From: Thalassophryne amazonica | Taxonomy: Eukaryota | DNA length: 64,000 nt | Assembly (NCBI RefSeq): GCF_902500255.1 | Contig: NC_047118.1 | Location: forward strand, 75,533,565 to 75,597,564 | Reading direction: 5' to 3' | Shown here: one piece after another, positions 1 to 30,894 of the stretch | Layout: each line of letters starts with the position of its first letter | Position numbering within the stretch: the stretch's first letter is position 1 | The notes under the pieces: generated by a model | What the model was told of the DNA's origin: nothing | What the model saw: only the letters and a program-made list of their open reading frames with translations | Databases searched by the model: none | Position numbers and translations under genes: made by a program

Positions 1-99
1 TTTCGCTTGTCATCTGGGCATCAGGAATACTGTTAATCTCATCCGGGAAAGGTTTTGGTGGCCTTGATTACTCCCAGATGTAACTGAATATATTGGGGC

Positions 100-1170
100 G
101 TGTCCGACCTGCGTGATGTGCAAATCCTCCACCTGACCACCTACCAGCATGCTCCATCCTTTACCCATTCCTACACGACCTTGGTCACACATTTCAGTGG
201 ACTTCATAATTGTCCAAGGAACATACTGCAATTCTTACTATTGTTGACTGCCTGTCCAAGATGGCGCATTTTGTACCCTTACCTAAACTGCTAACTGCAA
301 AAGAAACTGAAGCCTTATTAAACCACATTTTCAAGTTACATGGTTTTCCACAGGACAGTGTTTCCGACTGAGGTCCGCAGTTTGTTTCTCGGTTTTGTAG
401 GGAGTTTTATCAACTGCTGGGGGTCTCCTCCAGCCTCACCTCCGGGTATCATCCACAGGCAAATGGACAATTCGAGAGGGTCAATCAGGAATTACAAAAG
501 GGCCTTCGTATCCTTGCTTCACAGCACCCACCCTCCTGGTCTTCCCCGTTAGTATGGATTGAGCTCACCACAACTGTTTGTCATCTGCATCCATTGGTTA
601 CTCTCCATTCCATGTGTCACATGGTTTTCAGCCTTCTCTGTTCTTTTCCACAGACCTGACTTCACGTGTGCCCTCGACTCTGTCCCTCATCCTCCACTGC
701 CGACAGACCTGGGCATGGGCCCGTCGGGCTTTGCTGCAATCATCGGCGGATTACAAGGACGCGGCCAACAAGAAGAGGTCACAAGAGCCTGTCTACTCTC
801 CTGGACAACGGGTGTGGCTCTCCACCCGCCATCTGCCCATCCCGTGGTCTACCAGGGAAGCTCACTCCCAGGTTCGTTGGTCCATTTCCTATCTCAAACA
901 TTATTCATCTGGTTTCTGTCCACCTTTGGTTGCCCAGGTCTATGAGGATACACCCCACCTTCCACGTCAGCCATGTGAAGCCTGCCCGCACCAGGGGGCC
1001 GGGCTTTTCGGTGCAGCGCCTCTTGGGGTTTCAGCGGTGTGGGAGGGGAGTGCAGTCCCTGGTGGACTGGGAGGGGTACGGGCCGGAGGAGTGCTCGTGG
1101 ATCCCCTCCTGTTTCATCTTGGACCCGGACCTGATTATGGACTTCCATGCTCGGCATCCTGATTCATGTC
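100..1170 (+). mobile_element. Ty3/gypsy-type LTR-retrotransposon pol 3' fragment (integrase core, C-terminal region and chromodomain), frameshifted and decayed
   Basis: Overlapping + ORFs carry integrase-like motifs (..HRQMDNSRGSIRNYKRAF..; ..[40 protein letters not shown]..) and a chromodomain-like ..[37 protein letters not shown]. The frames are broken, so this is a relic. Downstream 1170-1750 may be LTR sequence (unverified). Confidence 0.6.
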
Positions 1171-2553
1171 ATGAACTGTGTTTTGTCTTGTTATCTACCA
1201 TGTTTAGTTTAGGTCTTCATTTCATTTTGTTCTGATTTCGTGCTGTTTGGATTTTGTTTTTATTGTTTACTTAGTTTAGATTTTGGATTGTGTTGTCTAT
1301 GTGACTTCTCTGGCTGGGTGTTTCCTACTTGGGCTTTATCTGTCCCTGTTTCTCTTTTCTGTCTCTCTTGGAGCTTGGTGGGGGCGTGACACTGTATTTG
1401 GGCCACACCCTGTTCTGGATCTTTCCACACGTTTACAATCTATAGCTCATCACTAGGTGTATTTAAGCTCCACTGGTTGCACTGGTTATTCGCCTGACTG
1501 TTGCGCCTTGTGCCTTCGCTTGTAGCTCTGTATCATTGTGTTTTCAAGTCCTGATGTCACATTGTATTTTGACCACCTGCCTGTTTATACCGACCACACC
1601 AGTTGCCTGATGATTTTGATCTGTTTTCTTCTTTTGGACTGCCTCTCTCTGTACTGGACCCCACTGAGTAATTCAGTAAATGCCTCTTTGAACCACAGCT
1701 ACTGTGTCGAGTCCCACATTTGTCTCCAGCCTTCTATGTTAGACAAACCTGATACAAGCTGGACATGATGGCTCCCATGGGTAACTCAGACTTTGGTGGC
1801 ATCCTGAAAGTGCAGGCCCAGAACAGCCACATGTAAGAACAACAACTAATTTTAACTGTCTGAAACACTTAGACCTGGCCAGCAGTTGACTCTGGGGGAG
1901 TGTGTGCAGCTCCTCAGTTTTTGACAGCATCAACACCCCAGTAAGCATTAGATCATCTCTAGTGCCTCATGCCGAGCCTCACCTGCCACCCATCAAGCAA
2001 GACGATGGCAATCATGAGACATGTTGCTCATTCCTGTCCCTCTATGACCTGCAGCCTCCAGCCCTGTTCAAATCCCATGGATGCCTGATGGTCTGGGCCA
2101 CAGAGTGGGTGGTTGCTGAGTGTCAGCCATTGCACATGCATTCTCTCATTGCCTGAGAGAATGCATGTGCAGAGTTTCTGGGCTTACGGGTTCACAGGTC
2201 CCTCAATTTCAGCGTGTAATTGTTTAGTATCATTTATAACCACCGTTGGAGTATTGCCAACCCACCAGATTTTCTATCTTAATGTCTGCTCATTCTCATT
2301 ATTTCCTTGTCTTTGCCTTCGTGTTTTTGGCCCAAGCTGCCTCTGAGTGTCTGCCCATTTTTGCCTGCCATTCTTCACTTTTGCCATCTACTATGTATGT
2401 TGGCTGTACTCTTAACCTCTGCTTGTATTTTTGGATTACTCTTATGCTGCTCTGTCTCAGAACACTGTTGGCAATTGGAGTGATCTCCTATGTTTCTGAC
2501 TACTGCCCATCTAAGTGACCAAGAGAACTGTGTACTTGTACAGTACCATAGAC

Positions 2554-3823
2554 CAGTGATTTTCAACCTTTTTTGAGCCGCGGCACCCTTTTTATATTTA
2601 CAAAATCCTGCAGCACACCACCAACCAAAATAATATTATAATGCTATTACCTCTGGTTTTGCGCAAAACCAATTATTGCAATAGAAAATCGATACAGAAA
2701 ACACCGCATTTCGAAAATCCCAAAGCATTTTGCGCTCTGATCTCAAGTAGGGCTGTCACGATTAGGAATTTCTGGAGATGATTAATTGTCAGACAAATAA
2801 TTGCGATTGACGAATATATTTTCTATTTTTTTTCTTTTTTCCCCTTCTTTATATTCTACTATTGTAGTATAATTACACAACTGTGGAAGAACGTTTGGCT
2901 TCTGTGAGTGAAACTGGGAATGGTGCAACATTTTTATTTTTATCTTCATTTTACATACAGTCCCAACTTTTTCTGAATTGTGGTTGTTTCTGTTGCATTT
3001 CTGAAATTGTTTCTCCTCATCAGTCACGTTTTGTGCTTAAACACTGCATTAAGCTCAAGATTGAACAAATAAATACCTTTGGAAAATAACAGCTGTTAAA
3101 GTTCAGAGTTCTCACCTGCTTTTTGTGATCTCTGCGTCTGAACATTGTTTTTTTTTTTTTTTTTGTGGCTCAGTTCATTCATATATTCTCATTTTTTAAA
3201 TATGTTTTTAAAGATATTTGACCATTTATTTCATCTCATGATCTCATAAATTCAGCATACGACGCGCACATGGTGTGAACAGGACGGTAACGGCAGAATC
3301 ACACCTTTAGAGAAAGTTCAGAGAGAAGTAAAAGCAGCTTCATGTTTTGGTTTTGTTTACTCGGGTTAAAATCCTCTCTCTGCTCCGCGCTCGCTGCGCA
3401 CTGAACGTGTCGCGCCTGCATTCAGGAATCTCCCTCACCCACCCCCTCCCCTCCCTGACCCACCCCCTCCCCTCCCTCACCCCCTCCCCTCCCTGACCCA
3501 CCCCCTCCCTCGCAGTCTGCAGCCTGTTAACTCCGCGCGCGTGCACACACAGGCACAGACACACACACCGACAGCTCCGCATTTTAGACGGCTTTTGAAG
3601 GAGACGACACTGTTTTAATCGGCCGTCAGCCTCCTTGTTATTGTCCCGCCTTAAGACGAGAGCGAGGCTGCAGCACAATGACGTCAGATTCTGAGTCGTT
3701 TTATGCTTTATGGATAAAATAAATAATTCACGGTAATCGCGAATATGAAAAATAATCGCGAATATGAAAAATACCCACGGCACCCCCGACGATCGATCAC
3801 GGCACCCCGGTTGAGAATCACTG
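2554..3823 (+). mobile_element. Non-autonomous TIR element family 'A', copy 1 (about 1.27 kb; termini CAGTGATT(T/C)TCAACC...GGTTGAGAATCACTG; hAT-like judged from 8-bp flanks)
   Basis: Terminal inverted repeats cagtgattttcaacc / ggttgagaatcactg. No long coding capacity. Internal C-rich tandem repeats and a duplicated 'aatcgcgaatatgaaaaat' motif. About 97% identical to the inverted copy at 15423-16681. Flanks are CCATAGAC (left) and GCTTAAGC (right). Confidence 0.75.
3425..3515. repeat. C-rich tandem repeat (units of about 14-17 bp, ccctcacccaccccctcccctccctga) inside element A copy 1. The complementary strand is G-rich and could form a G-quadruplex
   Basis: Direct tandem units are visible. 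Copy 2 (15740-15790) carries one unit fewer, as the ORF translations ...REGRGWVREGRGWVRE... show. Confidence 0.7.
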
Positions 3824-4379
3824 GCTTAAGCACACGTACAGCAGTCTGAACATCAAAATATACCTAAAATACCCATAATGCAGTGTTTCAGGATAATTTA
3901 AATTATTGCATTATAATCATTATTATAAATGTCGACAAGTCTTAAAAAGAAAGGCAGATTAAAATCCTTAACTTTTCTCAGGACTGAAAAGCTGCTAAGT
4001 GTCTAATATTTATAAATTAATGTGTGAAATTTGAAGCACTTCTCACAATTGACGGTTTATTTTAAATTAATTCCTGGAATTTCTAATAAAATCAGGTTGT
4101 AATTAGTGTGTTTTTTAAAAAAATCATTTTATTACTAGCATCGGCTGTTAGGTTTCACAAACAAACAAAAACATATTTATTTAAAAAGAAAAGTGTTTTT
4201 GAATTAAACTTCCCGTTGACACTAAAGCACGATAGAAAGAATTTTATATATATGAGCCATCGACATGATGACTACATGACTGCGGAGATGATAAAATGAT
4301 AAAATCTTTGGACTCAAAAACACCCTGATGTGCTTTTCTGTCTTTTCATTGAGTCAGTACTGAGTCCTCCTCTTCCAGC

Positions 4380-4693
4380 ATCTCTCCTCTTCTCCTCCTC
4401 TTCAGCTGCATTATGACACACTGCCCCCCCCCCCTCCATCAGTGGCCATCTGTTTTTTTTTTCTTTTTCTTTATTGCTTTTCCACCTTTTTTCCACCTCC
4501 TGCACTGCAGCAGCATTGATTTCTTTCCTCTGCAGCACCCCCCCCCCCCACACACACACTCATCTCAGTTTAAAAGCAGATCCACCATCCACACCCACAA
4601 AGAATATAAACATGATGCTTTGGTTACTTTTCCATTCATCTACCCATCTTCTGCAGCTCTCTCTCTCCATTTCTCTTCCTCTGTGTCTGTCTG

Positions 4694-4726
<33 letters not shown>

Positions 4727-4740
4727 GGGCTCTCTAGCTG
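4380..4740. repeat. Low-complexity block: poly-C, poly-T and a (CT)n microsatellite at 4690-4735
   Basis: ctctctct runs and homopolymers. ORFs 4413..4760 and 4474..4737 are translations of low-complexity DNA, not genes. Confidence 0.8.
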
Positions 4741-5390
4741 CAGTGGGTGACTGTAAATAATTTAGATGAATTTAAAATTCAAATGAAGAAGCAGACCTCG
4801 CGCTCTCACTTAGCATCCTCTGGCTGTTCTCCCTCCCTTGACGACTGTTGCCATGACAACTCTTGATCGTCCTAGAAATCTAGTGAAAGAAATGCTCCTT
4901 GTTTCTCTGTTCATACTTAAAAAAAAAAAGTCTATAAAATTAAATAAGATGTCAAAATACAGTTGGCTCCATATAGTTTAACATAGAAATCATTTTAATT
5001 TAAGTCAGAGGGAGGCGCTCTCTAGTACAGGTTCTAAGGTGTCACAAATGAGCCAGCTGTTCACATTTTTGAAGAAAGCATCAAACTTATCCCACTCAAT
5101 CTGTAGGTTATAGTTAACAGTTTAAGGGGTGGACACCAGTGAAATATGCATATTAAGTAGGCGTGGCATGTCATTTTCAAAATGGCCACCAGAAACTGTA
5201 TGTAAATACATACAGATAAACACAGTTTATTTGCAAATCACACAGCTTGAACTTGTAAAAATCAACATTTCTCAATAATTGCTATGATGTCCAAATAACA
5301 TAGGTCCCTGTAAAAGTAAAAACTGAACAAATTTTATATAATGTGGCCATTATACAAATCATATGTTTTGTAAAATGTGTTGATAGCATG

Positions 5391-6500
5391 GCCCAAGCAG
5401 AGGGTCACCCCTTTTGAGTCTGGTCTGCTTGAGGTTTCGTCCTCAAATCATCAGAGGAAGTTTTTCGTTACCACTGTTGCCTGTGTGCTGCTCTGGGGGT
5501 TAGTAAGGTTAGACCTTATGCCGCGTTCACACCGCACGCGACACGACGCCACAAATTCGCTTTCTTCGCCTAGTGATGGATGCGCCACTATCGCCCGGTG
5601 TGTCGCTCTGCTTGGGCAGAAACTTTTGCTGCGAAAAGTAGCTTGTGTCATCAAATAGGAGGAGCTTCCATTCCGCTCGCCGTCAAGTCAACATGGCGGA
5701 CCTTGATCACACGGAGTGAGTTGCTGTGCTCTATTTGTTGTGGAAAGCAGACATGTCGCCAGCAGTGCCGTCACTGGGTTCACAATATCCTCATGAGACG
5801 TTCCCAATTCGGGAAGTTTCATCATTTGCTGCAGGAGCTGCATCTGGATGATGGCCGCTTTCAGCAGTACTTCTGCCTCTCCAGGACCCAGTTTGAGGAC
5901 CTCCTGTCCCGTTCACGCGCGCACATGTAAACAAGGAAAAAAAAAAACTGGCTGCCCCTGCAGTTCCTCGCTCTCTCTCCCCTCAAACTCTCATCATTGT
6001 GTTATAAACCAGTCACCACTTGTTTTATCATACATCTGTGTAGTTAATAAAATGATCTTCACGGAGGATTCGTTCACGTGCGCACGTGTGGTGCTGCTCA
6101 CTCTCCCTTCCTGCTCACAGTCTGGCTGCCAGACACAGGACATGTCCACGTCAAGTATAAACTCCAGACATCTTCACGTCACTACACATCCAGTCCTTGA
6201 TTGGTCATTGCGGCGCAACAAGACAAAAAAGTTCAGATTTTTCAACTTGGGGAGGAGGGCGACACAACGCGATATCGCGCCACAAAGTCGCCAATCGCTC
6301 AAAATCACTTCATTCGCGTCCATTGCGTCACATTGCGTGGCTTGAACTTTTGTGGCATCACAACGCATCCTTCCATAGGGATTACATGGCAACCTGTCGC
6401 CGCCGTCGCCCGCGTCGCATATGGTGTGAACGTGGCTTTACTTGTGTGAAGTGCCTTGAGGCAACTTTGTTGTGATTTGGCGCTGTATAAATGAAAATAA
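5391..6500 (+). repeat. SINE-like tail repeat (gcccaagcagagggtcacccc...ttgtgatttggcgctgtataaatgaaaataaattgaa), split by a nested insertion
   Basis: The uninterrupted paralog at 14670-14860 reads ...ggttagacctta|cttgtgtgaagtgcc... Here the same junction is split by 5519-6437. Similar tails occur at 14560-14650 and 48140-48225. Confidence 0.7.
5519..6437 (+). mobile_element. PIF/Harbinger-like non-autonomous element (about 919 bp) with a 3-bp TTA target-site duplication, nested in the SINE-like tail
   Basis: Ends tgccgcgttcacacc...ggtgtgaacgtggc are inverted repeats. Flanked by TTA at 5516-5518 and 6438-6440; the paralogous empty site has a single TTA. Internal ORF 5580..5930 carries a motif reminiscent of the Harbinger-transposase N-terminal HTH (...FRLSRTQFEDLL...); the family assignment is unverified. 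The body is CpG-rich. Confidence 0.45.
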
Positions 6501-6599
6501 ATTGAAACTGAACTGAATATACAATGGCATCAATAACTACAATTTATGTTTTCTGGCTAGTTTGCATCCTAAGCACTCTGCATAAAAGAAGTAACAAAC

Positions 6600-7760
6600 A
6601 AGAGCAATCATAGATTTCTTACGTCTGCCAATTTGGATCTGGATGACCTCCAAAATTCAGTGTTGTCTTCCATGCCCTAACATTTATCTGTGGTGCCAAT
6701 TGGGTGAGAATCCGCGAAGCAGTTTTGACGTAATCCTTCACTCTAAAACATTGCAGCACATTTAGTTATGTCCACTTGCTGCCTCTCTTTAACATAGAGA
6801 GCTCTTACAGGTTTTGGATGTTGAACTCAACTTTACAAGTTGAGATGAGTTTTAAAATTGAGTTCAACATCCATCCAAAAATTGTAAGAACTCTTTATGT
6901 TAAAGAGAGGTAGCAAGTGGACATAACTAAACGTGCTGCAATGTTTTAGAGTGTTCAAAGTGACATCTTGATCCAGAGTCCAGATTTGGATCCGGATCAC
7001 CTGCAGAATTTAATGGTGTCTTCCATGGCCTAATATGTATCTGTGGTGAAACGTTGGTGAGAATCTGTGAAGTAGTTTTGATGTAATTCTTCAAAGCCTA
7101 TATAAATGGAATCTTAATCCAGAATCCAGATCTGGATTACCTCCAAAATTCAGTGGCATCTTCCATGGCCTAATATGTATCCGTGGTGAAAAGTTGGTGA
7201 CAATCTTTGAAGTAGTTTTGATGTAATCCTTTCAAGCCTATATAAATGGAATCTTGATCCAGAATATGGATCCGGATTACCTCCAAAATTCAGTGGAGTC
7301 TTCCAAACCCTAATATCTTTCCGTGGTGCAAACTTGGTGAGAATCCGTGAAGCAGTTTTGATGTAATCCTTCAAAGCCTATATAAATGGAATCTTGATCC
7401 AGAATCTGGATCCGGATTACCTCCAAAATTCAGTGGAGTCTTCCAAGCGCTAATATCTATCCATGGTGCAAATTTGGTGAGAATCCTTGAAGTAGAGTTA
7501 ATGTAATCCTTCAAAGTGTATATAAAGTGAAATCATGATCCAGAATCTGGATTCTGATCCAGATCTCCTCCAAAAATGTATGTGTTCTTCCATGGCCTAA
7601 TATCTATCTGTGTTGAAATTTTCATCAAAATCTGTGCAGTAGTTTTGACGTAATCCTGCTAACAGTAATCCTTCAAAAGCTATATGAAGTGAAATTTAAT
7701 CCAGATCTGGATCCAGATCACCTCCAAAATCTGTGCAGTAGTTTTGACGTAATTCTGCTA
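6600..7760. repeat. Satellite-like tandem array, unit about 139 bp (...aatggaatcttgatccagaatctggatccggattacctccaaaattcagtggagtcttcca...gtgagaatc...gttttgatgtaatccttcaaagcctatataa), about 8 units
   Basis: The 'acctccaaaattcagtg' landmark recurs at 6648, about 6998, 7141, 7279, 7418 and about 7567, a spacing of 138-149 bp. Confidence 0.75.
6708..6960. mobile_element. Foldback (palindromic) insertion of about 250 bp inside the satellite array
   Basis: Near-perfect inverted arms: ctaaaacattgcagcacatttagttatgtccacttgctgcctctctttaacatagagagctcttacag... / ...ctgtaagaactctttatgttaaagagaggtagcaagtggacataactaaacgtgctgcaatgttttag. It breaks the 139-bp periodicity. Confidence 0.6.
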
Positions 7761-8263
7761 ACAGACAGACAGACAAATAATTAAACGTGATGATTTTATT
7801 ACATCCTTGGTGTACGTATAAAGGTGTTACTGTAAATAATATGTTGGAATAGAATAGGCTCGTCATCTGTGTGGTGATAAACATAACTAATTAAGATTAT
7901 CATGTCATTGTTGTGGTGTTTGAGTATGACCACTGGAGGCGGTCACACTGTAAAGGTGGGCTGCCGTGTAGAGAGCAGGCAGACAGGGCAGATCAGAGCG
8001 AGCGAGCGGGTAACACCTGTAAGCTGTACAGAGCTGTAATAAAGTTACACTGTTCCTGTACAACCGGAGTCGTCTCTCTACCAGGACGAAACAATTTATT
8101 TTCTGTTACAAGGAAGATGATACTTTCCTGGCAGAGAAGAGTCCAGCAGAAATGCTGAACTCTATTGAGACGAAAAGTAGCACATGGTAATGGCGGCTAC
8201 ACCTGCATTCGGAGCGGCAGAAGACCTCCGCTTTAACAAGGCTGAAGAGGAATTCGATTCTTT

Positions 8264-8626
8264 GTGGCAAATTGTATAAAATTCAGAGAGGAAAAATCAA
8301 AGGCAGTGTTTTTGACTGTTGTTGGAAAAAGACATCATGCACTGTTGAGAGATTTGTGTGAACCAAGGAAACCCGCAGACTGTAAGTTGACTGATTTAAT
8401 CAGTTATATGAGAATGCATCACATGCCAAAAACGAACTTTATCACCGAGAGGTATAAGTTTCATATCAGGAAGCAGAGACAAGAAGAGTCCATCAGTGAT
8501 TTTATGGCAAGTTTAAGGAAGCTAGCTTTAACATGTCAGTTTGGGACATTTTTGGACAATGCTTTAACCCTGTGGGATCGACGCCGTTGTATACGACGGC
8601 TAAGACCAAGCTTTACTAAATTATAA
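8264..8626 (+). mobile_element. Retrotransposon gag-like fragment (capsid-type motif DFMASLRKLALTCQFGTFLDNALTLWDR)
   Basis: ORF 8264..8626 resembles the conserved gag region of Ty3/gypsy or BEL elements (...L..L...C.FG..L...LRD...). It is isolated and has no intact downstream pol. Confidence 0.45.
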
Positions 8627-8639
8627 ATAACTTTTCAAT

Positions 8640-8745
8640 GATATGAGCTGGGGGAGGTGTGTGTGGATCGGGAGGTCTGGGCGGCTTTGTTTGAGCTGCT
8701 GCCCCCGCGACCCAACTCTGGATAAAGCAGAAGAAAATGGATGGA
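8640..8745 (+). repeat. LINE 3'-terminal fragment (RT C-terminus, ...EVCVDREVWAALFELLPPRPNSG*)
   Basis: Same conserved tail as 17632-17870 (…RPRGRPRTRWKDYISRLAWERL.VPPEELGEVCGDREVWAALLELLPPRPDSG*). The related ends at 26985-27175 and 47290-47775 translate in the same frame, …PRTRW..YI..LAWE.L.IP.EEL.., beginning …RPRTRWRDYISQLAWEHLRIPQEELQDLAEKC… in the 47290-47775 copy. Confidence 0.6.
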
Positions 8746-10406
8746 TGATATGAGATAGAAACTTACTTTTTTTGCTGAAAAATTAACTCCGCGGACTTTC
8801 GAGCCAACCATCGGCCATCTTTGTATTCCTCATAGAAGCTGTGTGATCACGTGCGCAATGTGAGTGTCCAATCGGAATTGGTTCGCAGTCACATGGTTTT
8901 CCAAAATCCAATCGTAGGGCAGATTTACCTCACATGAAAAGCCAAAGATCATTTTCAGGAGTTATATGTTATTAGTTGGCCCGTTTGAATAGCCCCCTGG
9001 GTGCTCCAATGAGTACATACTATTAGTACATACTCAGTGCACCCTGCGCCATTACGCACAGCGATCAGTGAAAGCAGGAGCAGACGGAGAACCTCTGATG
9101 ACAATCTCACGTGCTCAAATAAAGAGTGTGTAACTATCAGGATTGCTCCACTAGTTTGCATGTGAATGTTACTGGATAACTCTGTTGCTTTCTCTGCGTA
9201 AAGCACTGTTTACCATATTAATGGACAACGCATAGACCATTTTGTGTATATTGGTCAAAATGTGCATTTGTGTTTATTGTTTGAACCTTTTTGTTGTTCA
9301 GTCTTTCACACAAGACCTCAAATTACCTTTATAAAGTGTCAAAACAGTTGTTTATTATAATTTGCTGTGTGTTTTGAATAAATGTGTGTGGAAAATTATT
9401 TTTCGGTTTATTTTTTCCTTGCCTATTTTTGATTGTAAACCTTTATTACACTTATAAAACACAACAAAAACATATATATTCTGAAAGCACAGGTTGTCCT
9501 GAAAAAAGAGACATAAAACTTGATTGTGGGATGCAGGGAGAGCTGTTAACAGCAATAATAAAACATTTATGCCAGGTGAGTGAACTGTCCAAAAAAATGC
9601 CCTCGGACCCCAGAGAGTTTTAAGAGACAGACTCATTTGTGGTGTTACCAGCAAGAAACTCCACAACAGCTTATTAAGTGTGGCGCAAAGCAAAGAGTTA
9701 ATACTCGCCGAAGCTTTTGATGTGAGCCTCGCGCATGAAATGGCGGAGCAGAACGCGAGACACTGGGAAAAAAAGTCCATAAAAGCAAACGCTGTGTCCA
9801 CGAAAGGTTTTTCCAAGTAGGAAAAAGGGAAGCCGTGTCACAGATGTGGGAGGACAGGCCATACGCCAAATGATTTCCACTTTAAAGATGCACAATGCCG
9901 CAGGTGCCTGAAAAAAGGGCACATCGCCAGGACATGCAGAGAATGACTAGAGGATTTCGAGTTTCATACCTGAATAGTCTGCCTATCACAGCGAAGCAGA
10001 TTGCATGTGAAACTGAAAAAGATCCAATACTGGCGAAAGTGAAACAGTATGTTTTGTCAAGATGGCCAAAACATGTGACTGATGAAAACATTCAGTCATA
10101 TTTGAGACGAAAATTTGATCCGACAGTGGAAGATTGCTATTTACTTTGAGGATTCAGAGTAATCATTCCAGAAAGTTTGCAAAACAGGTTACTTGCAGAG
10201 CTACATGATAGTCATTGGGGCATGGTAAAAATGAAGTGCTTGACTAGAAGCTTATGGTGGCCAACATTGGATGACGATGTTGAAACTGTAGTGTACCAGC
10301 TACAGCTCCAGTACACACGTGAAAATGGGCTTCAGGTCCATGAGAAAGAATTCACCTTGATTTTACAGAATCCAAAGGTCAATTGTTCTTGGTAGTGATA
10401 GATACA

Positions 10407-11874
10407 TACAGTAGTGTTCAAAATAATAGTAGTGCTATGTGACTAAAAAGATTAATCCAGGTTTTGAGTATACTTCATATTGTTACATGGGAAACAAGGT
10501 ACCAGTAGATTCTCACAAATCCAACAAGACCAAGCATTCATGATATGCACACTCTTAAGGCTATGAAATTAGGCTGTTAGTAAAAAAAAAAAGTAGAAAA
10601 GTGGGTGTTCACAATAATAGTAGCATCTGCTGTTGATGCTACAAACTCAAAACTATTATGTTCAAACTGCTTTTTTTAGCAATCCTGTGAATCACTAAAC
10701 TAGTATTTAATTGTATAACCACAGTTTTTCATGATTTCTTCACATCTGCGAGGCATTCATTTTGTTGGTTTAGAAACAAGATTTTGCTGGTTTACTAGTG
10801 TGCTTTGGGTCATTGTCTTGTTGAAACACCCATTTCAAGGGCATGTCCTCTTCAGCATAAGGCAACATGACCTCTTCAAGTATTTTGACATATCCAAACT
10901 GATCCATGATACCTGGTATGCAATATATAGGCCCAACATCATAGTATGAGTAATATGCCCATATCATGATGCTTGCACCACCATGCTTCACTGTCTTCAC
11001 TGTGAACTGTGGCTTGAATTCAGAGTTGGGGGGTCGTCTCACAAACTGTCTGCGGCCCTTGGACCCAAAAAGAACAATCTTACTCTTTTACTCTCATCAG
11101 TCCACAAAATATTCCTCCATTTCTCTTTAGGCCAGTTGATGTGTTCTTTGGCAAATTGTAACCTCTTCTGCACGTCTTTTATTTAACAGAGGGACTTTGC
11201 GGGGGATTCTTGCAAATAAATTAGCTTCACACAGGCGTCTTCTAACTGTCACAGCACTTACAGGTAACTCCAGACTGTCTTTGGTCATCCTGGAGCTGAT
11301 CAATGGGTGAGCCTTTGCCATTTTGGTTATTCTTCTATCCATTTTGATGGTTGTTTTCTGTTTTCTTCCACACCGTCTCTGGTTTTTTGTCCATTTTAAA
11401 GCACTGGAGATCATTGTAGATGAACAGCCTATAATTGTTTGCAACTGCGTATAAGTTTTCCCCTCTCCAATCAACTTTTTAATCAAACTATGCTGTTCTT
11501 CTGAACAATGTCTTGAACGTCCCATTGTCCTCAGGCTTTCAAAGAGAAAAGCATGTTCAACAGGTGCTGGCTTCATTCTTAAATAGGGGACACCTGATTC
11601 GCACCCGTTTGTTCCACAAAATTGACAAACTCACTGACTGAATGTCACACTACTATTATTGTGAACACCCTCTTTTCTACTTTTTTTTTTACTAATAGCC
11701 CAATTTCATAGCCTTAAGAGTGTGCATATCATGAATGCTTGGTCTTGTTGGATTTGTGAGAATCTACTGAATCTACTGGTACCTTGTTTCCCATGTAACA
11801 ATAAGAAATATACTCAAAACCTGGATTAATCTTTTTAGTCACATAGCACTACTATTATTCTGAACACTACTGTA
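10407..11874 (-). mobile_element. Tc1/mariner family 'A' element with about 230-bp terminal inverted repeats and TA duplication. The transposase is degraded (ORFs 11127..11576 and 10770..11042 on minus), and the element is inserted into the retrotransposon integrase
   Basis: Ends TACAGTAGTGTTCA…/…TGAACACTACTGTA. Minus-strand ORFs encode Tc1 transposase (…LIKKLIGEGKTY…[13 protein letters not shown]…; …KHGGASIMIWA…[12 protein letters not shown]…). Paralogs at 30895-32360 and 46324-46769. Confidence 0.85.
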
Positions 11875-12043
11875 TGCCAGATCGGCCGAATTACTACCAC
11901 ATGCAAAACGATTGCAGTTTGGAGAAACTTGCTTTCCACTTATCAGTTGCCGAAGGAGGTGGTAACTGATAACGGACCTCAATTCATTGCAAATGAATTT
12001 GAGACATTCCTGAAGTTGAATGCTGTCAACACTCCGACATATA

Positions 12044-12917
12044 CGAGGTCTGTTAGAAAAGTATCGGACCTTTTTATTTTTTTCAAAAACTATATGGATT
12101 TGAATCATGTTTGTAATGAAAGAAAGTGCGGACGGGTCCGTGTGTCGGGACGCAGCCGACGCTGTGCGCCGCCACAGGAAGAACACCTCCGTTGGAAGCC
12201 TTAAGGACAAGTTGGAACATGTCCAGCTGTTAAACAATTTCTCAGATACTCACTCAACTGAAAGTCATCAAAAGCCGCCTGGTTTTTACAAATGGTTATC
12301 AACACAGAGGTGTTTTTCCTGTGCCGCCACACCGCGCCGGCTGCGTCCCGACGTGCGGACCCGTCCGCACGTCTTTCATTAATAAAATCTCCTTTAACAG
12401 TGGAATGTCCGGATAAACTGCTGATCCCGACCTCTTCTGAAAGTTCTCTGTTCTCTCACGATGTCCTGGGTCAACAGAGGCTTAAATTTGGAAGCTTTCA
12501 GCTTGAAACAGGCAGACAGCGGCGGCTCAGGGCACGTTGCGACATCCTGCTCCGTGGGCAGTCCTTAAAGCGACAGCAACAGTCCATAATCTCTCATCAG
12601 CCGTTAAAATTTTCACAGAAAACCAGCTGAATTTCTCGAATGGTGTCCACTTCGATGTGCCTCACAGTTTTTGAAAAAATTTTGATCAAGCAAAGCGCCA
12701 GTCTCTCAGGAAGTTGTCAGACAGAGATTCCGACGGGAGGGGTAGACCACTCCTCACTCAAAGCCAGCCCACAGGCAAATGACGTAACCAACAGGCGTGA
12801 AAAAACTCACGCATGCGCACGAGGGTTCAAGGTTGTCTGATGTAATCGCACGTGATTCAAATCCATATAGTTTTTGAAAAAAAATAAAAAGGTACGTTAG
12901 TTTTATCACAGACCTCG
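12044..12917. mobile_element. TA-flanked non-autonomous TIR element (about 874 bp) with about 60-bp TIRs and an internal 70-bp-arm hairpin (12115-12380), inserted within integrase codons
   Basis: Ends cgaggtctgttagaaaagtatcggacc… / …rc identical. TA at 12042-43 and 12918-19. Removing the element and one TA restores …TPTY|NSPSNG… in the integrase reading frame. Confidence 0.6.
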
Positions 12918-13139
12918 TAATTCACCTTCAAATGGATTGGCTGAGAAGCTGGTGCAAAATTTTAAGAGGTCCTTAGCTGAAAGTCGAGCACTTGGTGGTA
13001 TGATGCTGCAAGAATGTATTGCAAAATTCAGGTTTGTATCAAAATATGCCACATGTCACAACTGGGAAAATGCCAGCAGAACTGTTCTTGAAAAGACAGG
13101 TTCGCACCAGGTTGTCTTTGCTGAAACCAAAATTCTGCT

Positions 13140-13690
13140 GTGTGTTTAGGGTCATTATCCTGCTGAAAGATGAACCGTTGCCCCAGTCTGAGGTCAAGCA
13201 TGCTCTGGAGCAGGTTTTCATCCAGGATGTCTCTCTACATTGCTGTATTCATCTTTTCCTCAATCCTGACTAGTCTCCCAGTTCCTGCCGCTGAAAAACA
13301 TCCCCACAACATGATGCTGCCACCACCAAGCTTCACTGTAGGGATGGTGCCTGGTTTCCTCCAAACATGATGCTTGACACCAAAGAGTTCAATCTTTGCC
13401 TCATCAGACCAGAGAATTTTGTTCCTCATGGTCTAAGAGTCCTTCAGGCGCCTTTTGGCAAACTCCAGGCAGGCTGCCATGTGCTTTTTACTCAGGAGTG
13501 GCTTCCGTCTGGCCACTCTACAATACAGGCCTGATTGGTGGATTGCTGCAGAGATGGTTGTCCTCCTTGATGGTTCTCCTCTCGCCACAGAGGAATGCTG
13601 CAGCTCTGACAGAGTGACCATTGGGTTCTTGGTCACCTCCCTGAGCAAGGCCCGTCCCCCCGATCGCTCAGTTTAGATGGACAGCCAGCT
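13140..13690 (-). mobile_element. Tc1 family 'B' transposase fragment (middle part)
   Basis: Minus ORFs 13433..13648 (…KNPMVTLSELQHSSVARGEPSRRTTISAAIHQSGLYCRVARRKPLLSKKHMAACLEFAKRRLKDS) and 13235..13429 (…[57 protein letters not shown]…). Confidence 0.8.
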
Positions 13691-13699
13691 CTGGAAAGA

Positions 13700-14650
13700 G
13701 TCCTGATGGATCTCAACTTCTTCCTTTTAGAAAGGAGATGGGTGTGGTATTTGTGCTCGAGACCCTCCTGTCCTGTGCACCAACAGCATTTCCTGTATAT
13801 TTGTTTTGTGAATTGTTCCCTGAAAAGCCTTCAGTTAATTCAAAATGCTGCAGCTAGAGTACTGACGGGGACTAGAAGGAGAGAGCATATTTCACCCATA
13901 CTGGCCTCTTCTTTGGCTTCCTGTTAATTCTAGAATAGAATTTAAAAAATTTTCTTCTTACTTATAAGGTTTTGAATAATCAGGTCCCATCTTATCTTAG
14001 GGACCTCATAGTACCATATCACCCCAATATAGCGCTTCGCTGTCAGACCGCAGGCTTACTTGTAGTTCCAAGGGTTTTTAAGAGTAGAATGGGAGGCAGA
14101 GCCTTCAGCTTTCAGGCTCCTCTCCTGTGGGACCAGCTCCCAATTCGGATTAGGGAGACAGACACCCTCTCTACTTTTAAGATTGAGCTTAAAACTTTCC
14201 TTTTTGAAAAAGCTTATAGTTAGGGCTGGATCAGGTGACCCTGAACCATCGCTTAGTTATGCTGCTATAGACTTAGACTGCTGGGGGGTTCCCATGATGC
14301 ACTGAGTGTTTATTTCTCCTTTTGCTCTGTATGCACCACTCTGCATTTAATCATTAGTGATTGATCTCTGCTCTCTTCCACAGCATGTCTTTTCCTGATT
14401 CTCTCCCCTCAGCCCCAACCAGTCCCAGCAGAAGACTGCCCCTCCCTGAGCCTGGTTCTGCTGGAGGTTTCTTCCTGTTAAAAGGGAGTTTTTCCTTCCC
14501 ACTGTCGCCAAGTGCTTGCTCACAGGGGGTCGTTTTGACCGTTGGGGTTTTTCTGTAATTATTGTATGGCTTTTGCCTTACAATATAAAGCACCTTGGGG
14601 CAACTGTTTGTTGTGATTTGGCGCTATATAAATAAAATTTATTTGATTAG
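13700..14650 (+). repeat. Widespread teleost interspersed repeat with a conserved pseudo-peptide (…LQLIQNAAARVLTGTRRREHISPIL…LLWDQLPIRIRETDTLSTFKIELKTFLF…), ending in the 'ttgtgatttggcgctatataaataaaat' tail
   Basis: ORFs 13706..13927 and 13972..14223 show the conserved motif seen in many fish genomes. It sits between two Tc1-B fragments, so it probably inserted into that Tc1. Confidence 0.55.
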
Positions 14651-14669
14651 ATTTTTTCTATAATTTGTG

Positions 14670-14860
14670 TGTTGCATGGCCCAAGCAGAGGGTCACCCCT
14701 TTGAGTCTGGTCTGCTTGAGGTTTCTTCCTCAGAGGGAGTTTTTCCTTACCACTGCTGCTCTAGGGGTTAGTAAGGTTAGACCTTACTTGTGTGAAGTGC
14801 CTTGAGGCAACTCTGTTGTGATTTGATGCTATATAAATGAAAATAAATTGAACTGAAAAA
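14670..14860 (+). repeat. Intact short copy of the SINE-like tail repeat; serves as the 'empty site' for the 5519-6437 insertion
   Basis: gcccaagcagagggtcacccctttgagtctggtctgcttgagg…ggttagaccttacttgtgtgaagtgccttgaggcaactctgttgtgatttgatgctatataaatgaaaataaattgaactgaa. Confidence 0.7.
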
Positions 14861-14864
14861 AATT

Positions 14865-15400
14865 ATGGATGATGGAGGCCACTGTGCTCATTGAGACCTT
14901 CAAAATGGCAGAAATGTTTCTGTACCTTTCCTCAGATTTGTGCTTTGTGACAATCCTGTCTCAGAGGTCTACAGCCAATTCCTTTGACTTCATGCTTGGT
15001 TTGGGCTCTGACATGCACTGTCAACTGTGGGACCTTTTCTGTAGACAGGTGTTTGCCTTTTCAAATCATGTCCAATCAACTGAATTTACCCAGGTGGACT
15101 CCAATTAAGCTTCAGAAACATCTCAAGGATGATCAGTGGAAACAGGATGTACCTCGGCTCAAATTGAGCTTCATGGCAAAGGCTGTGAATACTTATGTAC
15201 ATGTGATTTCTTAGTTTTAAAATTTTTAATAAATTTGCACAAATCTCCGAAAAACATTTTTCACATTGTCATTATGGGGTACTGCATGTAGCATTTTGAG
15301 GAAAAAGAAATTAATTTCATCCATTATGGAATACGGCTGTAACAAAATGTGGAAAAACGTGAAGCACTGTAAATGCTTTCTGGATGCATCACAGCCTCAA
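14865..15400 (-). mobile_element. Tc1 family 'B' 5' end (TIR, leader and N-terminal transposase codons), minus orientation
   Basis: Classic Tc1 terminal region at 15150-15400 (…caaaggctgtgaatacttatgtacatgtgatttcttag…ccattatggaatacggctgtaacaaaatgtggaaaaacgtgaagcactgtaaatgctttctggatgcatc). The reverse-complement of 14900-15150 encodes …TKHEVKGIGCRPLRQDC…. Confidence 0.7.
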
Positions 15401-15422
15401 GAAACAGTTGTATAGTCTATGG

Positions 15423-16681
15423 CAGTGATTCTCAACCGGGGTGCCGCGGCACCCTAGGGTGCCGTGATCGATCGTCGGGGGTGCCGTGGGTATTTTTCAT
15501 ATTCGCGATTATTTTTCATATTCGCGATTACCGTGAATTATTTATTTTATCCATAAAAAGCATAAAACGACTCAGAATCTGACGTCAAACGTGCTGCAGC
15601 CTCGCTCTCGTCTTAAGGCGGGACAATAACAAGGAGGCTGACGGCCGATTAAAACAGTGTCGTCTCCTTCAAAAGCCGGAGCTGTCGGTGTGTGTGTCTG
15701 TGCCTGTGTGTGCACGCGCGCGGAGTTAACAGGCTGCAGACTGCGAGGGAGGGGAGGGGGTGGGTGAGGGAGGGGAGGGGGTGGGTGAGGGAGATTCCTG
15801 AATGCAGGCGCGACACGTTCAGTGCGCAGCGAGCGCGGAGCAGAGAGAGGATTTTAACCCGAGTAAACAAAACCAAAACATGAAGCTGCCTTTACTTCTC
15901 TCTGAACTTTCTCTAAAAGGTGTGATTCTGCCGTTACCGTCCTGTTCACACCATGTGCGCGTCGTATGCTGAATTTATGAGATCATGAGATGAAATAAAC
16001 GGTCAAATATCTTTAAAAACATATTTAAAAAATGAGAATATATGAATGAACTGAGATACACACACACACAAAAAAAACAATGTTCAGACGCAGAGATAAA
16101 AAAAAAGCAGGTGAGAACTCTGAACTTTAACAGCTGTTATTTTCCAAAGGTACGAGTATTTATTTGTTCAATCTTGAGCTTAATGCAGTGTTTAAGCACA
16201 AAACGTGACTGATGAGGAGAAACAATTTCAGAAATGCAACAGAAACAACCACAAATCAGAAAAAGTTGGGACTGTATGTAAAATGAAGATAAAAATAAAA
16301 ATGTTGCACTATTCCCAGTTTCTCCACTCACAGAAGCCAAACGTTCTTCCAGAGTTGTGTAATTATACTACAATAGTAGAATATAAAGGGGAAAAAAAGA
16401 AAAAAAAATAGAAAATATATTCGTCAATCGCAATTATTTGTCTGACAATTAATCATCTCCAGAAATTTCTAATCGTGACAGCCCTACTTGAGATCAGAGC
16501 GCAAAATGCTTGGGGATTTTCGAAATGCAGTGTTTTCTATATCGATTTTCTATTGCGATAATTGGGTTTTGCGCAAAACCAGAGGTAATAGCATTATAAT
16601 ATTATTTTAGTTGGTGGTGTGCCGCAGGATTTTGTAAATATAAAAAGGGTGCCGCGGCTCAAAAAAGGTTGAAAATCACTG
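15423..16681 (-). mobile_element. Non-autonomous TIR element family 'A', copy 2 (inverted relative to copy 1)
   Basis: Reverse complement of 2554-3823 with about 97% identity and one fewer C-rich unit. Flanks are GTCTATGG (left, equal to the reverse complement of CCATAGAC) and GCTTAAGC (right). Confidence 0.75.
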
Positions 16682-17389
16682 GCTTAAGCAGTATTTTAAG
16701 TATTTGTATCGTGTTGCATTTAACTTCAGAAAAACACCAGTATGTTTCTTACTAAGTGTTGAAATGTTAAAGGTATTTTTATTTTTCAATCATGTTAAAG
16801 TTTAGTTTCTTATATAAACATTCCACTGATGCAAAAATCCCTAAAAACTGAGACTCCCAAATGTTTAAGTCAGAGCTCCACCTGGTGGGCTTCTGTGGAA
16901 ATTACATAAAAACACTGCTCATTTCTTGCCCCTAAAGTTCTGATGGAAATTTTAAATCATTTCTGCTCTTGGTCTTGATATTCAATGTTCTTATTTATTT
17001 CATTCTCTTTTTGTGCCTATTGGATAAACGTGCATGATTATGATTAATCCAGTTCTGAAAACCGGTTCATCAGTGTGAACACATTAAGGTTGAAGATTCA
17101 GTCTGGTGCAGGTGGAACAGATGCTTGGATCACATTATGTCCTCTTTTCTATTGTTTATTTGCTTTGAGTAAACATTCATACTTTGAGGGGTGTTCTTGA
17201 TCTGGCTGCCAGGAAGAATTTCTTCACCCGTGTCTCTGTGGCGTTCCTGGGTCGGGCGGTGGCAGCAGCGCGTGCGCCTTGGCTGCTAAAGTGTAGCTGT
17301 AAAGCTCAACAGCCATCCAGGACTCTTACATGCAAACACATCCAACTCCATCAAAAACAAAATGGCTATTTAATGACATCTCATTTTAT

Positions 17390-17630
17390 AGTCATGATGG
17401 TAAATGCACTGCATTTATATAGCGCTTTTCCATCGGCATTAGACGCTCCAAGTGCTGTACAATAATGCCTCACATTCACCCTGATATCAGGGTGCTGCCA
17501 TACAAGGTGCTCGCTACACACCGGGAGCAACTAGGGGATTAAGGACCTTGCCCAAGGGCACTTAGTGACTTTCTGGTCAGGCGTGGATTTGAACCAAGGA
17601 TCTTTTGAGGTGACTCAGGCATCTTTTCTG
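17390..17630 (+). repeat. SINE-like sequence (…ctgcatttatatagcgcttttccatc…ggtgctgccatacaaggtgc…gggattaaggaccttgcccaagggcac…), immediately followed by a LINE-derived tail
   Basis: Resembles teleost tRNA-derived SINE bodies. 17632-17870 is the LINE 3' tail, so the two may together form one SINE or LINE 3' unit. Confidence 0.4.
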
Positions 17631-17631
17631 G

Positions 17632-17870
17632 ATGCCCCCTGGACGCCTCGCTGGAGAGGTGTTCCTGGCACGTCCCATTGAGAGAAGGCCCCGGGGAAGA
17701 CCCAGGACACGCTGGAAGGATTACATCTCTCGGCTGGCTTGGGAACGCCTTAGTGTTCCCCCGGAGGAGCTGGGGGAGGTGTGTGGGGATCGGGAGGTCT
17801 GGGCAGCTTTGCTTGAGCTGCTGCCCCCGCGACCCGACTCCGGATAAAGCGGAAGAAAATGGACGGATGG
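17632..17870 (+). repeat. LINE 3'-terminal fragment (RT C-terminus; ORF 17632..17847)
   Basis: MPPGRLAGEVFLARPIERRPRGRPRTRWKDYISRLAWERLSVPPEELGEVCGDREVWAALLELLPPRPDSG* is a conserved fish LINE end. Paralogs at 8640-8745, 26985-27175 and 47290-47775. Confidence 0.65.
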
Positions 17871-19314
17871 ATCTTTTGGTCTCAAACCCAACGCTTAACC
17901 ACTAGACTCACTCAGTTGTTTCTTACAGACTACAAGAACATTTGTAACAGTAAAGTTAAGTAAATTATGATCATAATTAAAATCTGGCTCAATTTTTTTT
18001 TAATAAATGCATGTCATTTGTTCATTACAGGTCAAGTCTAGGAGGGCGTGCACACTAGCGCTACATCCACCACACTATGGAACCACCCAGGCACAGTTCA
18101 TCCCCACCTCCCCAAAGTAACCATCAATCTGCTGCAGCCAGATTAAATGTGGGCGTGTCCTTGACTTCCAACACTGAGGTACCTTTGTGCTGGATCAGTT
18201 GCAGAAAACACCACATGGACAAAATGTCACAGATGTTCCCTCACAATGTAAGTGATCCTCATCCAAATCTGCCCAAGTCTGCATTTGTGTGACACAAAGT
18301 CAGTCCAGTTGTACCCAAGGATGCTTTGCAGCGGTTGAGGAAGTAAGAAGTGAAGGAAAAGTTGACACCCACAAAATCACCTCGCTGTGGTAAACAGACT
18401 TTGGAGAGGCGTAAGACAAATTTATTATGGTGCAGTGATAGACCTTTAAAGAATAAAAACCTAAATTAAAATGGTGCACATGTGATGCATTAAAACAGCA
18501 GGTTTGATTGATCAGAAGAACTTTAGACTTGAGACAGTTCGGAGCATCAACTCATTTAATCTTTACCCGAAGCAGGCGTTACTGTCAATTACATCAACGT
18601 CACAAAGGACAAAGAAGTTTCTTTGGCTGTCAGACTCCAGGAGTGAAGCGCTTTAGAGGCACAATTCTTAATTTGAAGCAGATCCATTGTAAACTCCATG
18701 TCAGAGCTTCTGTCCACAAATAGACCCGCAAGGCGCAGTTTAACCGTACAGGCCTCAAAAACCGTTTTACTGACCTCAGCTGGTTCTGGTCTGTTCCACA
18801 GGGAAAACCCATGGTTTAAAAAAAAAAAAAAAATCATTTTCTTTTTGGTGACTCAGCAGCTACTAAAAACGTTTTTACTGACCCCTAGTGGCTGCAGTGA
18901 CTCGACATTCAGAGTTTCTGCTCACTGAAAAGGTAATTTTTTTTTCCATTTTTGCCTTTCTTATCACATTTATCATTGATAAAAGTTTGACTTAACATCC
19001 CATAAGAATAAGAAAATTCTTTAATAAGGAAAGGTTTAAAAGAGAAAACTGTAGCTCACATCAAATGATACCAGAGGGCAGCAAAACTATGGTCAGCGGA
19101 TTCACCAAGAAATCAGAACAAAACATTATACAGCATTTGGGATTTGACAATAACAGATACGTGAAGCCATGGTGCCGCACAGGAAGTAGAAAACCCAAAC
19201 CGTGACATTCTGCTGCCAGAAAAAAAAAAAAGTCTACATTGGACCAGTGTGATTGGGTCAAACAAGTCAACGTTCGACATTTGAATCTCTCGTGAAAAGT
19301 TTCCCACAGTGATG

Positions 19315-19432
<118 letters not shown>

Positions 19433-19800
19433 CACCAAAATAAGAGTGGCCAACAGAAAATCTAATATTGATAATTGAAAACCTTTAATTTTTTTAAAGC
19501 AAAAACTCAAACATACAGAGAAGTCTTTTGAACTCTGAAGAAAAAAAATTGACTTTTTTTTTTAAATGACAATAATTGACAGATGAACAGATATCAGTTG
19601 CAGGCCTAGTTTTGTTTTGTAAACTAGGGGACAGATCAGCTGGTTAATATGTCCAGCTTCACAGACTTTTGTGAAAACCCAACCGTTTCAAATTAAAGAT
19701 TTCTGATTCCTACAAGAAAGCAGTGCTGTACTCTATCACAGTGAAGGAAGGGTACAAAAACCTGTTCAGGTTTACTTTTGGACGGCTGTTCCTGCTCGTC

Positions 19801-19920
19801 TTCACTGGTCAAGGCTTTGCAGCGCCCCCAACAGACCATTGGCGGTGGTGAAGAGGTTGATGGGTGAAGCCCCGTCAGTGATGATTGTGGACTTCAACCC
19901 CAGAGCCTGAAGCAATTTCA
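19801..19920 (-). CDS. MVP: MVP terminal coding exon ([39 protein letters not shown], stop TGA at 19801-19803 on minus)
   Basis: Acceptor ctttccag|gtgaaattg. Matches [32 protein letters not shown]…. The teleost-style C-terminus is shorter than in mammals. A possible ATTAAA polyadenylation signal lies near 19482-19487 on minus (weak). Confidence 0.85.
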
Positions 19921-30880: not shown

Positions 30881-30894
30881 AAATTGCATGTAAA

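Follow-up and report, generated by a model that had tools for sequence, protein, structure and literature searches.

Inversion between a pair of transposons has been textbook material since the work on bacterial IS elements, Ty, hobo/P and Galileo. The Galileo-mediated inversions of Drosophila buzzatii are reportedly the subject of studies by Caceres in 1999 and Casals in 2003. The published signature of an inversion made by ectopic recombination is a pair of copies in opposite orientation whose target-site duplications have been exchanged (PMC2775673; PMC8225341). Each breakpoint of inversions 2j, 2q7 and 2z3 of D. buzzatii bears a copy of a cut-and-paste transposon; the two copies of an inversion face opposite ways, their duplications are exchanged in reverse complement, and the junctions neither gained nor lost sequence (PMC2775673). 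Two candidate mechanisms have been proposed for these inversions, ectopic recombination and hybrid-element insertion. The Ac/fAc inversions at maize p1/p2 likewise have a hAT element at each breakpoint and 8-bp duplications, but they arise by reversed-ends transposition of two separate elements, which makes one new duplication only and loses the segment between the elements (PMC8225341). In bacterial inversions between inverted IS copies, and in human inversions by non-allelic homologous recombination, homologous exchange flips the spacer and may do so repeatedly. Those cases involve other element classes, and in the human ones the repeats are mostly segmental duplications, much larger and free of duplication footprints.

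Here we describe a locus in a percomorph fish that is a clean new example of this well-known kind of rearrangement. It shares with the Galileo inversions the opposed copies, the reverse-complement exchange of duplications, the clean junctions and the same pair of candidate mechanisms. It differs in the element (a probable hAT with an 8-bp duplication, rather than a P-superfamily element with 7 bp) and in scale, as the apparent inversion is an 11.6-kb micro-inversion of gene-free DNA, whereas those of the fly are cytologically visible and polymorphic. In Drosophila, the uninverted chromosomes and chimeric copies have been demonstrated, whereas the fish case is known from one assembled sequence. 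Unlike the maize inversions, it has two flank pairs that are both reciprocal.

Two opposed copies of one element

The window, by which we mean the whole 64-kb stretch of DNA that was analysed, contains two copies of the same element:

2554..3823, plus strand: copy 1, 1270 bp, a putative hAT element of non-autonomous, SPIN/Charlie-like type; terminal repeats 2554-2568 and 3809-3823
15423..16681, minus strand: copy 2, 1259 bp, the same element as copy 1, inverted; terminal repeats 15423-15437 and 16667-16681

These lengths agree with the earlier note, which had described two inverted copies of about 1.27 kb and about 97% identity. Measured identity is 97.7% (28 substitutions in 1225 aligned columns), or 98.9% with low-complexity runs masked, and the copies also differ by 12 indels of 1-33 bp. 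A repeat finder chained the inverted-repeat arms as 2553-3807 and 15457-16682. The terminal repeat CAGTGATT[T/C]TCAACC is present at all four ends. Its exact pattern, CAGTGATTYTCAACC, has four matches in the window, at 2554-2568 (+), 3809-3823 (-), 15423-15437 (+) and 16667-16681 (-), against a mean of 0.47 matches in shuffled sequence. Neither this pattern nor a repeat search revealed a third copy of the family in the window. In the alignment, homology between the copies ends exactly at the terminal repeats, and the flanks beyond the adjoining 8-mers are unrelated. An inverted segmental duplication was rejected on the grounds that homology stops at the terminal repeats.

The interior of copy 1 holds a CCCT-rich minisatellite and a 19-bp tandem duplication. 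Its sole open reading frame encodes 147 aa, for which a homology search returned no protein match. Judged from its sequence, copy 1 is without coding capacity.

Substitutions between the copies are unevenly placed, with seven in the first 213 bp and six in the other 929 masked columns (maximum chi-square permutation p = 0.058), and the less diverged stretch is the CpG-richer one. All 28 substitutions and 12 indels could have arisen after the event that produced the present arrangement, and later mutation together with gene conversion could also yield an uneven spread.

Copies of the family were sought in other collections. Exact-product look-ups with the flank and element reading frames gave no record, and a strict DNA pattern for the element ends had no match in viral, prokaryote-genome and metagenome collections. 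A looser pattern found eight loci in the same collections. Five of them were read as chance, being high-GC contigs (57-69%), two of them named prokaryote assemblies, with a match of the 15-mer only (18 nt in L007). The other three (L002, L004 and L006) match over 35 nt; L002 was rejected as a copy of the same family and is read as a short MITE, related but of a different family.

Exchanged target-site 8-mers

The four 8-mers that abut the elements were all read directly:

2546..2553, plus strand: putative target-site duplication P, outer-left, CCATAGAC, the reverse complement of 15415-15422
3824..3831, plus strand: putative target-site duplication Q, inner-left, GCTTAAGC, palindromic, identical to 16682-16689
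15415..15422, plus strand: putative target-site duplication P, inner-right, present as the reverse complement GTCTATGG
16682..16689, plus strand: putative target-site duplication Q, outer-right, GCTTAAGC

Direct duplications are absent at both copies: the flanks are CCATAGAC and GCTTAAGC at copy 1, and GTCTATGG and GCTTAAGC at copy 2. Between the copies, the flanks match in reverse complement at eight of eight positions, since CCATAGAC becomes GTCTATGG on reverse complementation and GCTTAAGC remains unchanged. The mixed, reciprocally paired flanks and the palindrome were features of the earlier note, and a base-for-base re-reading leaves both intact. When the inversion is undone on paper, each site acquires a perfect 8/8 duplication, and the match stops at exactly 8 bp, an indirect sign of the 8-bp duplication typical of hAT elements. 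The reconstructed empty sites, ...GTACAGTACCATAGACTATACAACTG... and ...CTGCTGTACGTGTGCTTAAGCAGTATTTTAAG..., come out identical to the two ancestral sites proposed before. A composite transposon, with the two copies as the ends of a larger mobile unit, was rejected because a direct match is lacking both between the outer flanks (CCATAGAC/GCTTAAGC) and between the inner ones.

How surprising is such a match? The probability of coincidence runs from 1.6e-9 to 1.7e-4. A random pair of 8-mers from the window is reverse-complementary with probability 4.1e-5, which for both pairs jointly gives 1.6e-9; the strictest target-preference null, which obliges all insertions to fit NYYTARRN, still gives 1.7e-4 for the two together. 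The palindromic form of Q is unremarkable in itself because NYYTARRN sites are often palindromic (13% of those in the window, compared to 0.6% of all 8-mers).

The same 8-mers bear on the identity of the element. Published SPIN/hAT-N families have the terminal repeat CAGTGKTTCTCAACCT and the 8-bp target consensus NYYTARRN (PMC3014272), and the target motif of Buster-clade hAT elements is nnnTAnnn (PMC3517528). The terminal repeat found here matches CAGTGKTTCTCAACCT and begins with CAG, as in the SPIN/Charlie type. Q fits NYYTARRN at six of six positions and P at five of six, and the central TA of the Buster-clade motif is present in each. These features support the assignment, already proposed as hAT in type, to a probable non-autonomous, SPIN/Charlie-like hAT element of the Buster clade. 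With vertebrate families such as SPIN_NA1_AC and hAT-N1_AC of Anolis (PMC3014272) it has in common the similar terminal repeat, the NYYTARRN 8-bp target, the non-autonomous character and a sub-kilobase to kilobase size, a likeness of ends and target motif that does not extend to a comparison of internal sequence and is accompanied by no close copies in the collections searched.

The candidate inverted segment and its surroundings

The DNA between the copies comprises the following features:

3832..15414, no strand: candidate inverted segment, 11,583 bp between the inner 8-mers, made up of transposon debris and satellite
6595-7764: 140-bp satellite, within the segment
10405-11876: Tc1/mariner copy, within the segment

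Fragments of gag and integrase and SINE-like pieces also lie inside 3832-15414, where no host gene was detected. Across 20 open reading frames, Pfam identified transposon domains and the domains of major vault protein and caskin and nothing else; Rfam had no match over positions 1-20000. The segment lies in intergenic DNA about 3.1 kb downstream (3' side) of the major vault protein gene. Major vault protein exons within the segment were considered and rejected, the last coding exon lying outside it at 19826-19924. This exon was mapped with a C-terminal query, and the matches validate themselves. Identity is 80-92% in the best matches for major vault protein exons and 74% in the best caskin-2-like one; a look-up of the Pampus protein gave no record. 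The nearest available relatives, including the Logan contigs of the nearest, align to the window in exons only, at 82-89% DNA identity.

We also looked for features that span the ancestral junctions. No repeat crosses either reconstructed empty-site junction (600 bp per side, searched against the window), and a protein-level self-comparison of the window found no split coding fragment. A Tc1-like fragment at 15143-15391, which has three other copies, does not cross the P junction: its start lies about 27 bp to the inner side. Neither site is bridged by a repeat or a gene that would independently confirm ancestral continuity.

How the inversion may have arisen

A flip of 3832-15414 is supported as the only parsimonious source of two reciprocal sets of P/Q hybrid flanks in cis. 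The earlier note had placed an 11.6-kb inversion at this interval, and the 11,583 bp between reciprocal hybrid flanks agree with it. We infer, with considerable confidence, that the flip took place in the organism.

Our preferred account begins with the insertion of two copies of the hAT element, of about 1.27 kb, 11.6 kb apart and in opposite orientation, downstream of the major vault protein gene. Each insertion would have created its own 8-bp duplication, P (CCATAGAC) at one site and Q (GCTTAAGC) at the other. A later crossover between the inverted copies, in other words ectopic, non-allelic homologous recombination, would then have flipped the intervening 11,583 bp and exchanged a P and a Q between the elements. 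Both copies would thus end with a mixed pair, P on one side and Q on the other, the inner P in reverse complement. Taken as a whole, two independent insertions followed by a flip through ectopic recombination seem to us somewhat more probable than all the other histories together. Under ectopic recombination, two insertions of the same family within 12 kb, with no third in 64 kb, require local hopping or luck.

The alternative that survives best is that a lone element at P or Q, after replication, had one end of one copy paired by the transposase with the opposite end of the copy on the sister chromatid. Insertion of this hybrid element at a target close by in the same chromosome would invert the segment, leave an opposed copy at each breakpoint and make the second 8-bp duplication at that moment. 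[quoted passage not shown] That the window has just two copies of the family, 11.6 kb apart, would need no extra assumption; both 8-mers suit the target motif of the family, as transposase-made cuts would; and hAT inversions via alternative transposition are known in maize (PMC8225341). Counter to this, the event would have left two identical copies, whereas 28 substitutions and 12 indels now separate them, and an active trans-acting transposase would have been needed at the time. The uneven spread of substitutions, although its p of 0.058 is above 0.05, and the lower divergence of the CpG-richer part mildly favour two distinct parents with partial homogenisation, which suits hybrid-element insertion slightly less well. 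We regard this route as unlikely, while giving it more weight than any other rival, and favour homologous recombination over such aberrant transposition. The two are separable only via chimeric copies (PMC2775673). Of the earlier proposal of a flip by homologous recombination, therefore, the flip stands on its reciprocal flanks, and the mechanism is not singled out, as hybrid-element insertion yields the same footprint (PMC2775673).

The footprint could also have been made by assembly. If the true chromosome read P-[element]-P and Q-[element]-Q, an assembler that flipped the 11.6-kb unique piece between the inverted repeats would produce exactly the observed arrangement. Against this, the window has no N in 64 kb, and a (TA)52 microsatellite, a 1.1-kb satellite array and several 1.4-kb repeats of similar size and identity (92-95%) are all resolved, which speaks against a flipped scaffold piece and for an assembly that is contiguous and of long-read type. 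In addition, long reads would easily span a 1.27-kb repeat and distinguish its copies by 28 substitutions and 12 indels. We consider mis-orientation improbable.

The remaining readings have a negligible share of the probability: reversed-ends transposition of two direct-orientation neighbours is documented for hAT elements and makes inversions with an element per breakpoint and an 8-bp duplication (PMC8225341), but under it just the new target would supply a pair of matching 8-mers, with the other flanks drawn from two different sites, so that the two perfect reciprocal matches exclude it, and they effectively refute chance resemblance without rearrangement, which would further demand that both original direct duplications had decayed at four of eight positions in elements just 1-2% diverged.

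The biological consequence of the inversion is probably small. It neither breaks nor carries a gene, and the DNA that it turned round, a mix of transposon debris and satellite, lies about 3 kb past the major vault protein gene on the 3' side. Its value lies in being a base-perfect natural case of a DNA transposon pair reshaping a vertebrate chromosome, with both duplications intact and both empty sites exactly predictable. It thus provides a PCR-testable marker for asking whether small inversions flanked by inverted repeats are polymorphic or recurrent in the host fish. Together with other copies of the family, the locus could separate ectopic recombination from aberrant hAT transposition. If hybrid-element insertion were the true route, this would be a natural germ-line vertebrate case of transposase-driven inversion by a SPIN/Charlie-like hAT element in a single step, and it would mean that, in their active phase, elements of this type directly reshape the genomes of fish.

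The two element copies and their exchanged flanks

The two inverted copies of the hAT element (copies 1 and 2) are bounded by the terminal motif CAGTGATTYTCAACC, which has exactly four matches in the 64 kb (shuffled sequence mean 0.47) and whose positions therefore set the boundaries of both copies. A repeat finder places the chain of inverted-repeat arms at 2553-3807 and 15457-16682.

Copies, terminal motifs and directly read flanks
2546-2553, plus strand, flank CCATAGAC
2554-3823, copy 1, 1270 bp; terminal motifs at 2554-2568 (+) and 3809-3823 (-)
3824-3831, plus strand, flank GCTTAAGC
15415-15422, plus strand, flank GTCTATGG
15423-16681, copy 2, 1259 bp, opposite orientation to copy 1; terminal motifs at 15423-15437 (+) and 16667-16681 (-)
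16682-16689, plus strand, flank GCTTAAGC

In each copy, position 9 of the repeat is T at one end and C at the other, and we label the ends so distinguished A and B. Across 1225 aligned columns there are 28 substitutions between the copies (97.7% identity); masking homopolymer and microsatellite runs leaves 13 in 1142. Indels number 12, among them blocks of 33, 18, 11 and 6 bp. A CCCT-rich 21-bp minisatellite within the element differs by 33 bp between the copies (3430-3510 versus 15745-15793), copy 1 lacks an 18-bp block (CGGCACCCTAGGGTGCCG) that adjoins the B-end repeat between GGGTGCCG direct repeats, and both copies hold the 19-bp unit TAATCGCGAATATGAAAAA in perfect tandem duplicate (3734-3773; 15491-15530).

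Neither copy has a direct 8-bp duplication, its own flanks agreeing at 4/8 positions; every flank 8-mer instead pairs perfectly, as reverse complement, with one on the other copy. With each element read in its own orientation, the order is CCATAGAC-(A...B)-GCTTAAGC for copy 1 and GCTTAAGC-(A...B)-CCATAGAC for copy 2. Pairwise alignment ends the homology at the terminal repeats, and the flanks past the 8-mers are unrelated. Repeat finding, direct reading and alignment thus confirm all the numbers that the earlier note had given for copies and flanks.

Two random 8-mers of the window form a reverse-complement pair with probability 4.1e-5, and both pairs jointly with 1.6e-9; under the harshest null, in which all insertions lie at sites matching NYYTARRN, the joint probability is 1.7e-4. 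The palindromic GCTTAAGC might seem suspicious. This is answered by the target motif of the element family, NYYTARRN, which is itself palindromic, and by the share of perfect palindromes in the window, 13% among NYYTARRN sites as against 0.6% among all 8-mers. With P and Q denoting the 8-bp duplications of the two insertions, the presence of hybrid P/Q flanks at both inverted copies in cis requires an exchange that flips 3832-15414, as the earlier note had proposed.

Identity of the element

The terminal repeat is of the SPIN/Charlie type. The Anolis elements SPIN_NA1_AC and hAT-N1/N3_AC have the repeats CAGTGKTTCTCAACCT, CAGTGGTTCTCAACCTGTGG and CAGTGGTTCCCAACCT and 8-bp duplications (Novick et al., PMC3014272); SPIN_NA1_AC and hAT-N1_AC share the target consensus NYYTARRN, and that of hAT-N3_AC is NYYYRRRN (PMC3014272). 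To NYYTARRN, the consensus of the first two, GCTTAAGC fits at 6/6 positions and CCATAGAC at 5/6. Both have a central TA, and nnnTAnnn is the mark of Buster-clade hAT targets (PMC3517528). Judged by ends and targets, a test independent of the flank cross-match that bears out the assignment to hAT, the element appears to be one of the vertebrate non-autonomous hATs of SPIN/Charlie-like type.

At 1.27 kb the element cannot encode a transposase, and the one ORF of any size in it, 147 aa long and in part low-complexity, found no homologue among 5.8 billion proteins. No further, unrearranged copies of the family occur within the 64-kb window. Scanning viral, prokaryote-genome and metagenome collections for the element ends returned high-GC contigs that match over 15 to 18 nt, hits we read as chance, and a 35-nt match in three JGI metagenome contigs of about 42% GC (L002, L004 and L006). 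At 3540-3755 of L002 lies a MITE of ~215 bp with SPIN-like ends (CAGTATGGTTCTCAACC...GGTTGAGAATCACTG) and flanks GTCAGGCG/GTCAAGCG matching at 7/8; it is presumably eukaryotic DNA within the metagenome, and its kinship to our element appears limited to the termini.

Genes and repeats around the proposed inversion

Features of the window, which is percomorph teleost DNA
666-1235, plus strand, Gypsy/Ty3-type integrase C-terminus (SH3_Tf2-1 and chromodomain), left of copy 1
6595-7764, 140-bp satellite, ~8-unit tandem array (TRF 6979-7552, period 140, 87% matches)
8264-8626, gag-like fragment, inside the inverted segment
10405-11876, Tc1/mariner, ~220-bp terminal inverted repeats (CAGTAGTGTTCAAAATAATAG...), TA duplications on both sides
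11929-12204, integrase-core fragment, inside the inverted segment
19826-37624, minus strand, major vault protein gene, exons from 37.6 kb down to the last coding exon (19826-19924)
21337-21224, 20969-20844, 20632-20423, 19924-19826, minus strand, major vault protein C-terminal exons
About 29.5 kb, minus strand, Vault_2 domain exon of the same gene
54470-56347, minus strand, large caskin-2-like exon (Caskin proline-rich domain, E = 1.2e-38)

No host-gene domain or Rfam family was found in the flipped segment, so the inversion disrupts no recognisable gene and contains none; the end of copy 2 lies ~3.1 kb downstream of the last major vault protein exon. The segment holds the satellite, the Tc1/mariner copy with a degraded transposase (HTH_Tnp_Tc3_2), the gag-like and integrase fragments, SINE-like pieces and a Tc1-like fragment. 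The integrase tail at 666-1235 and the gag-like and integrase-core fragments are collinear in neither orientation.

An 82-nt inverted repeat (6739-6820/6872-6953) marks the left edge of the satellite. The major vault protein gene span contains a second Tc1/mariner copy, near full-length and 92.6% identical (30894-32360); a third, at 46323-46774, is partial. Directly downstream of the last coding exon of that gene is a (TA)52 microsatellite (19316-19418), probably in the 3' UTR, and one of its introns contains a foldback-like structure (24229-24532/24772-25078; ~305-bp arms, 90.6% complementary, ~240 bp spacer) that could be a long-TIR MITE or hairpin-forming element. The ORF upstream of the caskin-2-like exon passes through a (CT/SL) low-complexity stretch. 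Best matches of this exon are 71-74% identical (Logan contigs 70-74%, Sebastes 71%); with a best identity of only 74%, the protein collection contains no close relative of the source species.

Origin and meaning of the proposed flip

Three transposon-based routes to inversions are described: ectopic recombination, hybrid-element insertion and reversed-ends transposition (PMC2775673; PMC8225341). The first, a crossover between two independent insertions in inverted orientation, would be expected to yield chimeric copies in opposite orientation, with exchanged duplications and sequence neither gained nor lost (PMC2775673; PMC8225341). We regard it as the probable route, with some reserve. It needs local hopping to place two copies 11.6 kb apart. 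Local hopping is a known habit of hAT elements.

Hybrid-element insertion, with element ends taken from same-site copies on sister chromatids, is a rather unlikely source. Its derived product, x-P-(A..B)-Q'-(inverted)-P'-(B'..A')-Q-z (primes marking inverted reading), is identical to that of ectopic recombination; according to Delprat et al., the sole difference is identical versus chimeric copies (PMC2775673), and separating the two takes other family members. A weak argument for it is that it directly accounts for two copies, the sole ones in the 64 kb, lying 11.6 kb apart. Also weak is the counterargument from the spread of substitutions, with 7 in the first 213 bp and 6 in the remaining 929 columns (maximum chi-square permutation p = 0.058), most CpGs (44-46 versus 8-9) falling in the less diverged part. 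This is more natural for two distinct parents that conversion has partly homogenised, as under ectopic recombination, than for sister copies diverging uniformly.

A piece mis-oriented in assembly between the inverted repeats would leave an identical footprint. We consider this improbable: the window has not a single N and resolves the (TA)52 run, the satellite of 1.1 kb and several Tc1 copies that are 1.4 kb long and 92-95% identical, and the indels between the two hAT copies suffice for any spanning read to distinguish them, a point of argument rather than a test. A search for independent confirmation found no repeat or coding fragment in the window that spans either reconstructed empty site. 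The protein and contig collections yielded neither exact nor homologous matches to flank or element ORF products; the nearest relatives there show exon-level similarity only, at 82-89% DNA identity. All remaining explanations together seem very remote. Reversed-ends transposition of two separate elements, which duplicates the new target alone and leaves two unrelated outer flanks (PMC2775673; PMC8225341), is excluded since both flank pairs match.

The Galileo-flanked inversions of Drosophila buzzatii come closest as a precedent: they share with the fish case the logic, the footprint and the candidate pair of mechanisms. Among hAT elements the nearest precedent is the alternative transposition of maize Ac/fAc, whose footprint differs from that in the fish. 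The phenomenon itself is not new; the finding adds a genuine and very clean example, located in DNA free of genes, to a known kind of event. It provides a structural marker that is well defined and easy to assay, and may offer a vertebrate case in which to test recombination against aberrant hAT transposition.
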